DNA of 13,992 nt. Origin: Azolla caroliniana (lineage: Eukaryota > Plantae > Polypodiophyta). Location: positions 1 through 13,992 of the forward strand of contig JBHGNT010000908.1 in NCBI GenBank assembly GCA_043228905.1, written 5' to 3'. This document shows positions 3,862-12,800 of this stretch, one piece after another. The notes beneath the pieces were generated by a model that searched no databases, had not been told where the DNA came from, and saw only the letters and a list, made by a program, of their open reading frames with translations. A program made the translations under genes and the position numbers. The first letter of the stretch is position 1. Each line of letters starts with the position of its first letter.

Positions 3862-6800
3862 CTGTTTCAACCACATAGTTTATTGATTTCTAATGAACCA
3901 ATAATGACCAAATTAATCATTCAATTAAAAGTACATATACTTCATTGAAAATCTATACTGTCTAGTTGAAAGGATAACCAAAGACATTCAAAAATTTTAA
4001 TGTAGAATACACTAAACAGAAGTATACTCTATATAGAACTTTTAAATCAACATGTTATAAATCCACTTTAAGCTATCTACATTGTTTTTTTGCATCACAT
4101 ACCCTGGTGGTATGATTACTGAATGATCAAGATTTTCTTCATGTACCTGTTGATTTGTGTTTCCACTCTTGTGACTAATTCATGTCATAAATGATGGTTT
4201 GTGTATATGGTCTCATATGTTATAATGATTATGAACAAACCGCAATGTGAATAAACCATAGGACGAATTATGAGCAACACCTTTCCCACCCCAAATAAAC
4301 ATACCAAGTTTATAGGCCATGTTGGCAACTGCCTTGCCAACATGCAATGAAGTCTTCCGAATTCTGTTGAGTGGAGGGTACACAAGTCCCACTTCTCTAT
4401 CTTCATCTGTAACTTGTGATGCAAGAGCATCAGCTGCATCAGCACATGGTTCTTGATTATTACATTGAAGTGATGCAAAACTGTTTAGAAAATTCCATGT
4501 AAATTCTGGTTTTAAACATAATACCATGATTTTTCACATAAACATGATTTTCACCTGCTGCTAAAAACATTTCATCTCGTACTCGTGTTGCACCAGAAAG
4601 AGCACATCCTAAACCAATTCCAGGAAATATGAAAGCACTATTACCCTGGTTCACAACAAACAATATACATCATATATGATATTAAAGGTAAAACTCCAAA
4701 ATACAGTTCAGTATTTTTATTTATTACCCCAAATGCCTCTGGTCAAACCCCATAAAGACGCAATTATTTTGGCCTCTTAAAAGACATTAATACATCTTTC
4801 TTTCTTTCTTTTCTCTTTATGAAGTTGAGCAGAGGAGAGATAACAAAATTCAGTAGCAATTTAATACAAAAGCTCAGGTATATTCAGAAATTTCCTTTCT
4901 TATATTTACTGGATAAGAATCATGTAAATATGGAATGCAAACCTGTCCTGCATGAAACAATCTCCCATTAACATTCACTGGATCACTGTGGCTGGCACAT
5001 GCAAATATGCAACGTCCCTAATGGCATATAATGTGTTTATTGCCAATAGTTATTTAAAAGAGAGCACTGAAATAGAATAAGCATTGAAATATGTCTATTA
5101 CCTGAGTCCAACTGTATGCTTGCTCAGCTGTACACTCTGGTGTAGTGGGATGTGACAAAGCAAAAATGATGGGTCTCTAGAACAAAGTAACAAATTCAGT
5201 TGTGTAAATTACAAGAATTATGATAGCAGAGAGGAAAGCTGAGTGAACTATTCTCAGGAAATCTAGTCAAAATAAAAAGATCTATCTCTTATATTGTGAT
5301 CTGGTTTTCTACTTCATCACTCTTGCTGTCCTGCAATCTTACAGCAACACCGATTATAAACTATATTTGATAAAACAATTGTATTTATGAGGAAACGAGG
5401 AAATGTATCTACAATGCCACATAGGTTTCTTCAAAACACTGTTCAACATTCTCTATATCATTGCAGAAAATTCAAGAATATTAGAGATGTTTTTTCACCT
5501 GCATTTATATTACAAACATTCACATAACCAAGATTATGGAGTGAAATTAAGCCTAGAGAGGCAAATTAGCTGCAAGCTAAGATTACTGAGTCAGATTAAG
5601 TCTAGAGAGGTAAAATAATTAGACGTCCTTTGTCAAGACAGATTCAGGATTGGCTGGTTTACGTTGCTGGGTATACTATGTGGTGCATCCACTGTGCTCA
5701 GAGGTATTTGGTGGGGAAAATAAATTCTCGCAATATCTCTCATCACTCTTTAAATTTGTAATTATTGCTAGTTCCAAGTTTGGGAACATTGGTCCTCAGC
5801 TCTATCATTCTTGTAAGCCATATTTACCTGGACAGCTGGGCTTAAAATCTCACCGATCTACTAGAAGACTGTATATAACCCAGGGGTTAAGCACATTGCA
5901 ACCCAATCTCCCCGTTGTGCTACGAGTATTACTAAAAAAACACTACAGATTTATAGGTGACATTCTAGTATTCGTCTAATACCTTCATAAGCCAAGCCTC
6001 ATGTTGTACACAACATTGCAATAATATTATAATAATTGGTTTTGCCATGTAGCTTGTTGGATATAAAGGTCCAAGAACTCCCCATTTGTAAATTTATAAA
6101 ATCCCTTCACACAAAAGCTCTCTTAAGAGCTTCTAGGACATATTTGGGTCACTTGGCCAGTGTGAACTGGCACACGTACCTACAATCACATTCTAATAGA
6201 ACAATGTACTTCTGACCTTAAACAGATATTTAGGAACTCTAAAAACATGTGTATCTTCAACTGCTCCTTATGTTTTGCTCTGCACCTCAGGTTTAAGAGG
6301 CATTCCTATGAATCATGCCCTCGTTGATAATCAGTATTGCTTGCATTAGTTTATTGGATGCCTTCATAAAGGCAATCTGATGATGGAACTGTGGGATCTT
6401 CCTAAAAGGAAAGCATGTGACGCCATTTACAATCAGAGAATAATATTAGCACACCTTATTGAGGCTCGCCATCTCTTCACATACGTCTTTGGTGAAGCAA
6501 TTTTCCATCCCAGAAAATCCAAGAAGAGCAGTGGGGCGTACAGCCTAAAATAATTAACCAGCTTAAGTAATGCACAAAAAAGCAAATAAATATACATGAA
6601 TGTAACACTTACTTTCACAGAGTTAATTAGGTTTTCCTGATACGGGCAGTCTTTTGCGAAAGGTAATTTATGATTTTCCAAGGTATCAATACGAGATTTG
6701 ACCACCAGACCCTATAGAATTCATCATATACTTCAGTTGAACAACATGCGTGTAGAAAACAGACATTTCTACTACCTTAGAGATGGCAATGCTTGAAACC

Positions 6801-9800: not shown

Positions 9801-12800
9801 TATGTATTGGGTGTGTTACATGTCAAAGGTTCGAGTCTAGAATGTGAAAAGCTTCCCAAGTCAGTGCATCTACTTGTCTAGTTTAGACTTGCCATATTGT
9901 ACATGCAACCATAGATCCTTGCAAACTAACATGTCTCTCATCTTCTACTTCCAAACTGAATAGTTTGGGCCGGTCAACTTGAACATCCCACCAAAGGATC
10001 GTCCATATTCCAGAACTTCAGAGGTTATCAACCTTCGCTCTTATACCAATTTGTTGTGAATATGGAGCCGGCCACAACCGGCTAACAAGCAACAAAAATG
10101 AAACCGCAACAAAACAAAAGATGACAATAACAAAGACAAACCCTAAAAGGGAAAACCACGGGAGCCCACAAATCCCAAACAGATTCACCATATGTGAGTG
10201 TGTACAAGACCCAAGGCCACAACCTTGGTCTAATCTTCGTTTCAATGGACGGATATACAGAGTGTTAGGAATATGTCCCTCCTGTAGGAGGAGCCGACTG
10301 TTCGGCTGAGTAAGTGCTGACAATTGAATACAAGGAGTAGCCGACTGGTCAGGCTAAGAGCCGACAGTCGAAGACAAGGAGAGTCGACATGGAGAGTCGG
10401 CTAGTCAAAACGACTAATCGATCAATCGGCTGATTAGTGATTGTTACTGTTATTATTAGGTTTATAATAATAACAGACATATTTGTAAATAGCCCATACT
10501 GTGCTGAGGTATAAATACCTCTAGGGCAAAAACTTTAGGAGTGTAGAACCGTAGAACTGTAGAATAGTAGATGCTGAATAGAGTTTTTGTAGTGTGTGAG
10601 AGAAGAAGAGTGAGACGTGCAAGAGCGTGAGTGGTGCCATAGCTGTGTGTGTAACAGTAGATGCCAAGAGCCATGTGTGGTTGGTACACTCTGTATGAAA
10701 GTGTTGTAATCTGTTTTATCCTTCTCTTGTATATCCACTATTATAGTGAAGATCTGTTCTCCCATGGTTTTTCCCTATTTAAGGGTTTCCACGTAAAACA
10801 CTGTGTATTGTGCATAGTCTGTCTATTTTATTGTTCTCTGTTCTGAGTTGTGTATTTCTGCATAGTTTCCTCACAGATTTACGATCCCTTCCCGACACAG
10901 AGAGAGGGGGAGAGAGAGAGAGAGAGCAGGAAGTAGAATAACACACACAACACACTCCTCTACAACTCTAATAATAATCTCTCTATGTCTCTGTTGCCCT
11001 AGCTCTATATACATACATACATATAGGTATTTACAAATATAGCCATACATTTGCTTCAGCCAGCTTGCCCCTGGTCGGATCGGCCGAATCGGCTCCTAGT
11101 TTAGCTGGCCCTCATATTTGTCCGGCTCACAACCGAACTAACCGGCATACAGCCGGCACCTGGCCGGATGGGCTCTCCTCCCATCAGGAGGAACCACTTC
11201 TCCACAACACTTCTCCATAGCTTGTATGGTTCCGCGTGCTTTAATAGGTACAAGAGTGTAGCCGCATTAGGTCTCACATGTCTTGTTGCATTATCAAGGA
11301 TTCTATGTGTGTCGTATAACCATGCTAGTGCTTGATATATCCTATAGTAAAAGCACTTCCCAAAGAGGGATCCACTTGGGAAAACATAAGCATCATTCAG
11401 CAAAAAAAGGATGAGCAGCAGCAAGTACTTAAAAAGGGGAGAGGTATATAGGTTTTACTCTTAACATGTACGCCAACAGGTTTTCGAGGAAGAAAGATTG
11501 TGAGAGAAAACAGTTATGAACCAAGACATTGGGGCCTTGAGTTGGTCAGAATTCCTGCAGGCAGAGACATCACAAGGTGTATGATGTGCCAGTGAATCAT
11601 ATGTATGTGCACTAGTATAGATGGCAGATAGATGATGGGATGCAAGGGGATAAGTTAATGGTCACTATCTAAAGTTTAGAGCATGGAATAAGCTTCCAAC
11701 AGGTGGCAGATACGCTTCATCAACCCACATAAAACAACTTTAGCCACCCTCAAACTAGTCATGAACTGGGTAGAATAACCATCCTGCAGCAGTTAGATTC
11801 TAAAAGCTTATGCTTGTGTTTCTCGTTGTTGTCACCCGAAATCCATAGTTAAGAACTATTAAGATCCTGACACAAAAAATCAATTACTATGCATGAGTAT
11901 GACGTAGTAATATTTTATGTTACCTCACCAGCTCCCCTGAAGAGAAAAACATGATCAGAAATCCTGCCCCCAGTCAAGGGCAATGATGCAATTATCCCTG
12001 CCAAAGCAACTGCTCCAACTGCCTAGAGAAAGAAGATCCCATTATTTTCATTTCCCAAATGTTTGTCACTTATTTTACATTTATAGCGAAAGACAGCTTT
12101 TCAAAACAGTTTGTCAAAAAAAAGAAATAATGAACTGCTGACCTGGATATCACCATTGAATACAAGATGAGTACCACGATATTGAAGAAGTAAGCGAAAC
12201 GCATTCTTATTGGCAAAATCTTCAAACTAATCATTCAGAACAACATGCATTCAAAAAGTCACAATGAGATTAACCAATTCTGGTGTCCAAAGGAAACACA
12301 CTTAAACCAATTTTTGAACTAATGATCAATTAACCACCTGAATAAGAACTTTGTCGCCATATCTTGACTTGACTGCATCCATGAACTCATCAATAAGTTC
12401 ATTGTACAACTGGCACGTAGGATTACATTAAACATCAGACAGATAGTTTGTTTACTTGCAAATAGGCATGCATGCTCACTTTTAAAGTAGAAAGGTAACC
12501 AAACTTCTTTAAATAAAATGACAAAAAAGCTTATTTAAGTAATAAGGTGTGTATTCATCTTTAATACACAATGCAGGACCAATCTCTTCCTTTTAATGTC
12601 CTATACTTATCTCTTCTGAATCAGCACTTTGGGGAAGTAAGAAGGCAAAATTTACCTTAGCAAGATTTGGCCTCGATCCCCTTTGTAAGCAAATTAAGTT
12701 TAGAGAACAAAAAATCTCATATCCATAATTGTTAACGATAGTTACCCATAGAAGGTCCTTTTTGTCAAGCTTTAAACTTTTCATTACTACTTTCTATCTG

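Follow-up and report, generated by a model that had tools for sequence, protein, structure and literature searches.

Plant NADP-dependent malic enzymes (NADP-MEs; EC 1.1.1.40), such as those of maize (5ou5) and sorghum (6c7n), are regarded as a single family of enzymes active in the cytosol and in plastids. Malic enzymes (MEs) devoid of catalysis and decarboxylases derived from MEs are already known kinds. In C4 Cleomaceae (Gynandropsis gynandra and Cleome angustifolia), NAD-MEβ1 carries the Y132S and D297V replacements, is shown to be inactive, and regulates its α partner as a subunit that possibly binds aspartate in the dead site (bioRxiv 10.1101/2021.06.16.448762). The CitM/Mae proteins of Lactococcus lactis and Enterococcus faecalis are described as ME-family members that have lost malate conversion and kept metal-dependent oxaloacetate (OAA) decarboxylation (PMC8100219). 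In green algae, MEs with mutated motifs are reported by Tronconi et al. (2018), with neofunctionalisation suggested without data (PMC5958461). Here, we describe an ME gene of the fern Azolla caroliniana on the 13,992-nt contig JBHGNT010000908.1 (assembly GCA_043228905.1), the full length of which is hereafter called the window. The gene is intact, spliced, and under purifying selection, and does not correspond to a private pseudogene. With a probability of about 0.42, we read its product as a selected, non-catalytic regulator that would bind organic acids, has likely lost malate oxidation, and is predicted to keep the ME fold and a metal/carboxylate site.

An intact ME gene with altered motifs shared among ferns

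The gene lies on the minus strand, and its last 15 coding exons span the window from position 13990 down to a TGA at 3773-3775 (Table 1). Since its 5′ start lies upstream of the window, the codon of the catalytic tyrosine falls outside as well. All 14 introns are bounded by GT..AG, and the spliced exons form 1200 nt, i.e., 399 codons plus the TGA, with 0 internal stops, which confirms the unbroken 399-codon frame of 15 exons claimed by a first-pass annotation of the window. All six of the motif changes listed in that annotation were found by reading the codons: the glycine of NGD (GGT, 12152-12154), the AV dipeptide (GCA GTT, 12017-12022), the TS dipeptide (ACC AGT, 7589-7594), the histidine of SHPT (CAT, 5150-5152), the serine of GQGNS (AGT, 4637-4639), and ACASHS, for which the range given (4985-4999) holds five of the six codons (CASHS) but not the leading alanine (5000-5002). 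The one-residue deletion placed before ECT (SHPTT-PECT) was borne out by comparison with relatives. Throughout, residue numbers of human ME2 serve as labels, placed by motif and spacing from residues given in PMC7847962 and PMC13461788; the labels G282, T283, A315, and H260 rest on such counting rather than on aligning the sequences to ME2.

A search with one exon returned orthologues in Adiantum capillus-veneris and A. nelumboides, and a second search along with cluster look-ups added Pteridium aquilinum and further transcript proteins, for a total of 14 database proteins, of which about 7 are distinct and the others near-identical. The fern status of the transcript proteins other than those of Adiantum and Pteridium, two genera from different suborders of Polypodiales, comes from their position in the tree described below. 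The window protein is 82-88% identical to these orthologues. Among the sequences covering each site, D278G, G282A, T283V, A284G, A315T, and H260K are fixed in 14/14, and N421H, N467S, and the replacement of PF by HS in 15/15; at the positions fixed in ferns, 12/12 liverwort and algal relatives show the normal residue. The first-pass annotation had looked to such orthologues, and NGD, GAGET, SHPT, and GQGNS are indeed common to them. GAGETS and ACASHS hold as states of the clade only in part, as GAGET and HS are shared but the final S (2/14), the C (3/15), and the A (1/15) are minority states, most orthologues reading GAGETG and ASGSHS. More broadly, the S and the G of ASG are altered in 5/15 and 4/15 sequences, DSK reads DSE in 1/15, and the cofactor loop drifts within the clade (G311V and G316S, each in 2/14), such that this second GxGxxG/A loop is GAGETS in the window, GAGETG in most orthologues, and VAGETG in two. 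Residues reported in the annotation as kept, namely, the catalytic arginine, the lysine of GK, and the metal ligands (R165, K183, E255, D256, and D279), are present in 14/14 sequences each, as are Y112 in 13/13 and N466 in 15/15. No further rewritten form appeared among the best 120 of 3368 matches of a search aimed at shorter proteins. Scanning metagenomes for SHPTTPECT found one locus (L001), which provides no independent sequence because it is 99.9% identical to the window.

Contigs assembled from several sequencing runs were then compared with the gene model. The RNA nature of these runs is a guess, none of those listed being registered as RNA and X19 probably being DNA; we treated the contigs as transcripts because their joints fall at GT-AG sites. 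Support was found for 12/14 introns: introns 8 to 14 correspond to seven joints in contigs of runs X9 and X17, intron 5 is joined in X9, introns 1 and 2 are joined in X20, and for introns 6 (4.3 kb) and 7, loose contig ends from X9 match the exons on either side. No contig spanned introns 3 and 4 in the runs aligned, which counts neither way, and runs X13 and X18 had no exon coverage of the gene. The check by junction reads proposed in the annotation thus yielded spliced contigs, with codons equal to the genomic ones. RNA editing that would restore the normal motifs was ruled out, since X9 contigs that cover the codons of NGD and AV show no other letters, and so were alternative acceptors, none of which gives GT or AG in frame. 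A joint between 12394 and 13680, seen in four runs with 79 other letters in between, was read as cross-mapping of another ME transcript and left uncounted.

In run X17, which bears another organism label, differences from the window amount to 5/408 exon and 80/1249 intron positions (Fisher p 7e-6), as computed over four listed exon pieces and two listed intron pieces. In addition, 5/6 of the coding variants listed are synonymous, compared to 23% synonymous sites (p 0.003). The view of the first-pass annotation that a selected gene fits better than random decay is therefore upheld, as the motifs are shared, the contigs are spliced, and exons are more conserved than introns. A decaying pseudogene is accordingly very improbable. 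Such decay could be suspected from the long terminal repeat (LTR)-like insertion in intron 6 and from a minor alternative acceptor of intron 5 (12019-12022), which lies 4 nt into the AVG exon and shifts the frame at an X9 depth of 12.7 versus 137, but the frame is open, spliced contigs occur in runs of three organism labels, the same changes are found in two fern suborders at the identity levels given above, and synonymous variants are in excess.

Pocket residues lost and kept

PMC7847962 describes contacts of the ME2 substrate analogue with N421, N466, N467, K183, R165, and Y112, and gives E255, D256, and residue 279 as the metal ligands. The acid-base network Tyr112-Lys183-Asp278 is incomplete in the ferns, with Tyr (13/13) and Lys (14/14) kept and Asp replaced by Gly in 14/14 sequences. 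Likewise, the asparagines lining the substrate and cofactor are reduced to N466, as N421H and N467S occur in 15/15. Ascaris mutants at the equivalent Asp and Asn reportedly suffer large activity losses. As described for Cleome NAD-ME, the Lys that accepts the proton of the malate 2-OH group during oxidation is bonded to this Asp (bioRxiv 10.1101/2021.06.16.448762). Because this Asp primes the Lys and the Cleome β1 protein lacking both Asp and Tyr is inactive, normal malate oxidation has quite probably been lost in the fern protein, judging from its residues.

We then asked how unusual these changes are. In 146 diverse MEs representing 50% clusters, D278 is kept in 138/141, N421 in 123/138, and N467 in 121/135 of those covering the site, and each is kept in 105/105 plant sequences of NADP-ME clade A. 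Clade A and algal clade B have 229 conserved columns in common; at these, 15 changes are fixed in ferns and 4 in liverworts, none of the latter in the rewritten motifs. In ultraconserved columns, 11/16 fixed changes fall in or adjoin the motifs named in the first-pass annotation. Its claim that changes concentrate around the pocket therefore stands by motif, yet not uniformly by statistics: with a pocket defined beforehand from literature residues, p is 0.19, 0.04, 0.008, and 0.006 for windows of 2, 3, 4, and 5 residues. Since p depends on window width, we regard the enrichment as suggestive rather than firm.

The overall fold appears unaffected. Orthologue P0004 matched PF00390 and PF03949, the N-terminal malic and Malic_M domains, above the cut-off. 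A model of P0004 built with a 148-row alignment reached a predicted local distance difference test (pLDDT) score of 90.4 and a predicted template modelling (pTM) score of 0.90, with template modelling (TM) scores of 0.94 to maize NADP-ME 5ou5 and 0.92 to human ME2 1pj4. As modelled, the Class I ME fold is kept. An intact fold, together with the metal ligands, Tyr, Lys, Arg, N466, the GAGE core, and the DSK and HK lysines, could also suit an ME that is still active, only slower or regulated differently, with the new residues compensating one another; in support of this, the description of Cleome NAD-ME gives the Asp no direct part in catalysis (bioRxiv 10.1101/2021.06.16.448762). We consider it unlikely, as three near-invariant pocket residues and at least 6 neighbours were altered together and the cofactor loop is still eroding within the clade.

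In the regulator that we favor, D278G would abolish the hydrogen bonding by which the catalytic Lys is primed for oxidation, and N421H, N467S, T283V, A315T, and PF>HS would remodel the meeting place of the nicotinamide and malate. The remaining E255/D256/D279, R165, K183, and N466 could still hold a metal-bound dicarboxylate, be it malate, OAA, or aspartate, and binding of this ligand may be relayed through the conserved N-terminal domain to a putative partner. The enzymatic role would be covered, since Adiantum also has an NADP-ME with normal motifs (P0265).

Several observations weigh against a purely regulatory protein. The metal ligands, Tyr, Lys, and Arg never vary, as would be equally expected of a residual reaction, and the DSK and HK lysines, presumably tied to NADP binding, are mostly kept in ferns. 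The Cleome β1 protein lost its Tyr, which the fern protein kept. An obvious partner is missing, because the best 120 of 6138 matches included no fern copy of this lineage with normal motifs. The narrowest pocket definition gives no significant enrichment (5/47 versus 11/189, p 0.19), and the P0004 model says little about pocket geometry or chemistry, because normal MEs dominate its alignment.

The same kept residues may instead be those of a dedicated NAD(P)-independent decarboxylase of OAA (or a related beta-keto acid), possibly mitochondrial, which would have dropped the oxidation half of the reaction and kept the metal-assisted decarboxylation and tautomerisation half. The losses match the oxidation step, in which the Asp-primed Lys takes the 2-OH proton of malate, and the retained metal ligands, Tyr, Lys, Arg, and N466 match decarboxylation. 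There are precedents, as bacterial ME-family proteins are described as having become dedicated OAA decarboxylases (PMC8100219 and PMC10798043), and plant NADP-MEs are reported to have OAA decarboxylase activity, which mitochondrial NAD-ME lacks (PMC5958461). Retention of the catalytic set is not significant alone: given background conservation, all seven catalytic and metal residues would be kept with a probability of about 0.19, so their presence does not decide between these readings. On balance, we hold the decarboxylase to be the main rival of the regulator, if rather unlikely.

Ferns and liverworts share a second streptophyte lineage

In a phylogenetic tree computed without the motif columns, the rewritten proteins group together (support 100/100) as sister to the MEs of the liverworts Marchantia, Riccia, and Calypogeia (99/98), whose motifs are fully normal. 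Since these sisters have normal motifs, the pocket was rewritten on the branch leading to these ferns. Ferns, liverworts, Closterium, and relatives together compose a second streptophyte lineage, with support of 91/87 under LG+G4 and 99/97 under a mixture model, while the seed-plant and lycophyte proteins, a second Calypogeia protein, and the second Adiantum protein (P0265, with normal motifs) belong to a separate lineage. The fern protein groups with green-plant NADP-ME-type proteins, outside the mitochondrial NAD-ME (G+R) clade. In a search that scored 7995 candidates and was not exhaustive, the top 120 of 6138 matches included neither a named fern copy of this lineage with normal motifs nor a named rewritten form from outside ferns.

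Second-lineage members from liverworts and algae (P0134, P0011, P0012, P0014, and P0023) have normal motifs and N-terminal extensions, several of which end in an R/K-x-Y-H-D motif. They may be organellar NADP-type MEs without a description in the literature consulted.

Several orthologues have Arg-rich N-termini. The net charge over the first 20 residues is +4 to +6 in 4/6 orthologues and +1 and 0 in the other two. N-terminal net charge matters for mitochondrial import according to PMC12531127, and these N-termini may, as a weak indication from sequence, send the fern protein to another compartment than ordinary NADP-ME, which bears on the putative hetero-oligomer partner suggested in the first-pass annotation. 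Such a charge would suit a mitochondrial decarboxylase, but the targeting signal is weak, as the clade-A controls P0124 and P0265 reach +4 and +3 and two orthologues carry little or no charge.

Similar positions are altered in a separate algal-type group

A single loose group next to the plant NADP-MEs accounts for many of the exceptions at D278, N421, and N467; among its members are proteins annotated to Chloropicon primus and Hariotina reticulata. Within this group, P0290 and P0295 carry T283V, A315T, N421R, and N467S, and keep the set Y, R, K, E, D, D, and D; P0392 shares three of these four changes (A315T, N467S, and a basic residue at N421). The green-algal-like MEs P0290, P0295, P0388, P0392, P0291, P0299, P0300, P0312, P0313, P0343, and P0400 have progressively degenerate pockets, and some degenerate members also lack the Tyr or metal ligands. 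Some of these forms have a GVRR loop and a long insertion in place of GxSG. A common origin of the fern and P0290/P0295/P0392 forms was rejected, as forcing them into a joint clade gave p 0.00024 in the approximately unbiased (AU) test, with a group picked from motif states after a quick tree and with long branches present. The separate alteration of the same positions suggests a repeatable route. As an isolated observation on an unrelated branch, the ME of the flatworm Protopolystoma xenopodis (P0426), a single gene model, reads FNGDIQAS and GNS, i.e., D278G and N467S.

These parallels bear on the alternatives in different ways. The nearly identical changes in P0290 and P0295, which keep the catalytic set and do not form one clade with the ferns, count in favour of the decarboxylase outlined above, against which stands the loss of catalytic residues in further degenerate algal forms. 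An NAD(P)-linked oxidative decarboxylase acting on another substrate, such as a hydroxy acid or an amino acid, would account for new residues that are fixed rather than variable and for changes at the same positions and in the same direction in a separate group, in line with the neofunctionalisation that Tronconi et al. suggested for divergent green-algal MEs (PMC5958461). We find this explanation distinctly unlikely: many of the changes affect residues that position the cofactor, and the algal GVRR loop with its insertion and the drifting fern GxGxxG glycines argue against tight NAD(P) use. On a broader scale, it is possible, if doubtful, that green plants twice turned a second-lineage NADP-ME cofactor-free by combining a basic residue at N421 with T283V, A315T, and N467S, and that the fern product, perhaps located in mitochondria and absent from seed plants, is a eukaryotic, ME-derived OAA decarboxylase or dicarboxylate sensor.

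Relation to described MEs

The fern protein shares the Pfam domains and the fold of plant NADP-MEs (TM 0.93-0.94), is about 56-59% identical to clade A, and has the metal ligands and Tyr/Lys/Arg in common with it. It differs by the absence of D278, N421, N467, G282/T283, A315, and the PF of ASGSPF, and by its place in a separate streptophyte lineage with Marchantia MARPO_0024s0126, Riccia, Calypogeia, and Closterium.

The resemblance to NAD-MEβ1 lies in a retained ME paralogue in which the Lys-priming Asp is replaced (D297V there and D278G here, an equivalence based on spacing and on the reported bond to K203). However, NAD-MEβ1 is a mitochondrial NAD-ME-type protein with a known α partner, a lost Tyr, and only two major changes, whereas the fern protein is of the NADP-ME type, keeps the Tyr, and has about a dozen fixed changes in the pocket region. 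CitM/Mae, likened here by description, are Class II bacterial proteins (PMC5958461), in contrast with the Class I eukaryotic fern protein, which matches plant MEs with E values of about 1e-207 and small bacterial or archaeal enzymes with 1e-16 or weaker. The divergent green-algal MEs described by Tronconi et al., also likened by description, have mutated conserved motifs as does the fern protein (PMC5958461), and P0290, P0295, and P0392 differ from it in not forming one clade with it, in keeping D278, and in the GVRR loop insertion. By its deduced sequence, the fern protein is thus outside the class of active NADP-MEs, based on their defining residues, and outside the β1 and CitM groups by descent.

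The literature searched, which comprised titles and abstract starts with most subscription journals outside, held no description of the fern protein or of the liverwort-fern lineage, and the accessible parts of PMC10419320 and PMC11548211 mention only NAD-ME1 and isoform lists. The locus points to a second, old streptophyte lineage beside the single NADP-ME family usually considered. It also offers a natural experiment, as the Marchantia orthologue and the fern protein are about 67-70% identical with about a dozen differences in the pocket region, and comparing the two would show a route from an enzyme of central metabolism to a regulator or a new enzyme. If the fern proteins are inactive, their UniRef label "Malic enzyme" would mislead analyses of fern metabolism and crassulacean acid metabolism (CAM).

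Gene layout and other features of the window

Table 1. Coordinates of the ME gene features in the window, listed from the 5′ end of the gene.
Position	Strand	Feature	Support
13958..13990	-	First exon piece; kept catalytic Arg (human ME2 R165, 13988-13990) and first GxGxxG motif	Joined to next exon in run X20
13804..13869	-	Exon; kept catalytic Lys of PVGK (K183, 13846-13848)	Joints in X20
13616..13711	-	Exon CLPV...VEEE	X20 contig spans 13616-13711
12338..12409	-	Exon LYNE...VLIQ	Sequence; flanking introns 3 and 4 without spliced contig
12143..12226	-	Exon; kept metal ligands E255/D256 (12218-12223) and D279 (12149-12151)	X9 contig 12142-12172, 0 other letters
12143..12226	-	Changes in this exon: H260K (12206-12208), D278G (12152-12154)	Codons read
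11924..12022	-	Exon starting AVG (G282A, T283V, A284G; 12014-12022), ending GAGE	X9 joint 12021-12142, contigs with 0 other letters
7595..11923	-	Intron 6, 4329 nt, with decayed LTR-retrotransposon-like insertion, spliced out	X9 loose ends match both flanking exons
7547..7594	-	Exon starting TS; A315T (7592-7594; fixed 14/14), G316S (7589-7591; 2/14)	Codons read
7398..7451	-	Exon ending VDSK (kept)	Sequence and contigs
6613..6711	-	Exon GLVV...NSVK; HK lysine kept 15/15	Sequence and contigs
6455..6544	-	Exon with GFSG (GVSG in liverwort relatives)	Sequence and contigs
5102..5176	-	Exon with N421H (5150-5152) and one-residue deletion before ECT	Sequence, contigs, and relatives
4943..5017	-	Exon with ACASHS (4985-5002); PF>HS fixed 15/15	Sequence and contigs
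4555..4645	-	Exon with kept N466 (4640-4642) and N467S (4637-4639)	Sequence and contigs
4305..4433	-	Exon 14	Contigs and splice sites
3773..3861	-	Last coding exon, stop TGA 3773-3775	Contigs and splice sites

Two short stretches of the exon region, 12372-12394 and 13680-13709, are matched by contigs from four runs that have different flanks. By their motifs, these flanks resemble a mitochondrial NAD-ME-type transcript, which suggests that an NAD-ME-type paralogue is expressed in the same samples.

The insertion in intron 6 (8246-11210) comprises two LTR-like copies, at about 8246-8755 and 10051-11210, that are 77-84% identical by blastn. They flank broken pol fragments (8772-9612), which we take to be copia-like from their motifs and for which Pfam gave no relevant match; the second copy is itself broken by an insert of roughly 630 bp at about 10263-10895. 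Other intronic stretches (4766-4811, 6060-6200, and 13460-13575) attract matches from numerous unrelated contigs, with a very high depth at the first, and are dispersed repeats that possibly resemble miniature inverted-repeat transposable elements (MITEs).

Downstream of the stop codon, the region of the 3′ untranslated region (UTR) contains a perfect 169-nt tandem duplication (3389-3726), which is likely an assembly artefact or private, because L001 has a single copy and an X17 contig skips one. A 63-nt tandem repeat with two copies, 87% identical, lies at 431-556. Finally, positions 1-147 of the plus strand hold the end of a neighbouring gene that is convergent with the ME gene. It has a weak SET-domain match (E 0.033) followed by a Cys-rich motif that we presume to be post-SET-like, and this gene probably encodes a histone methyltransferase.

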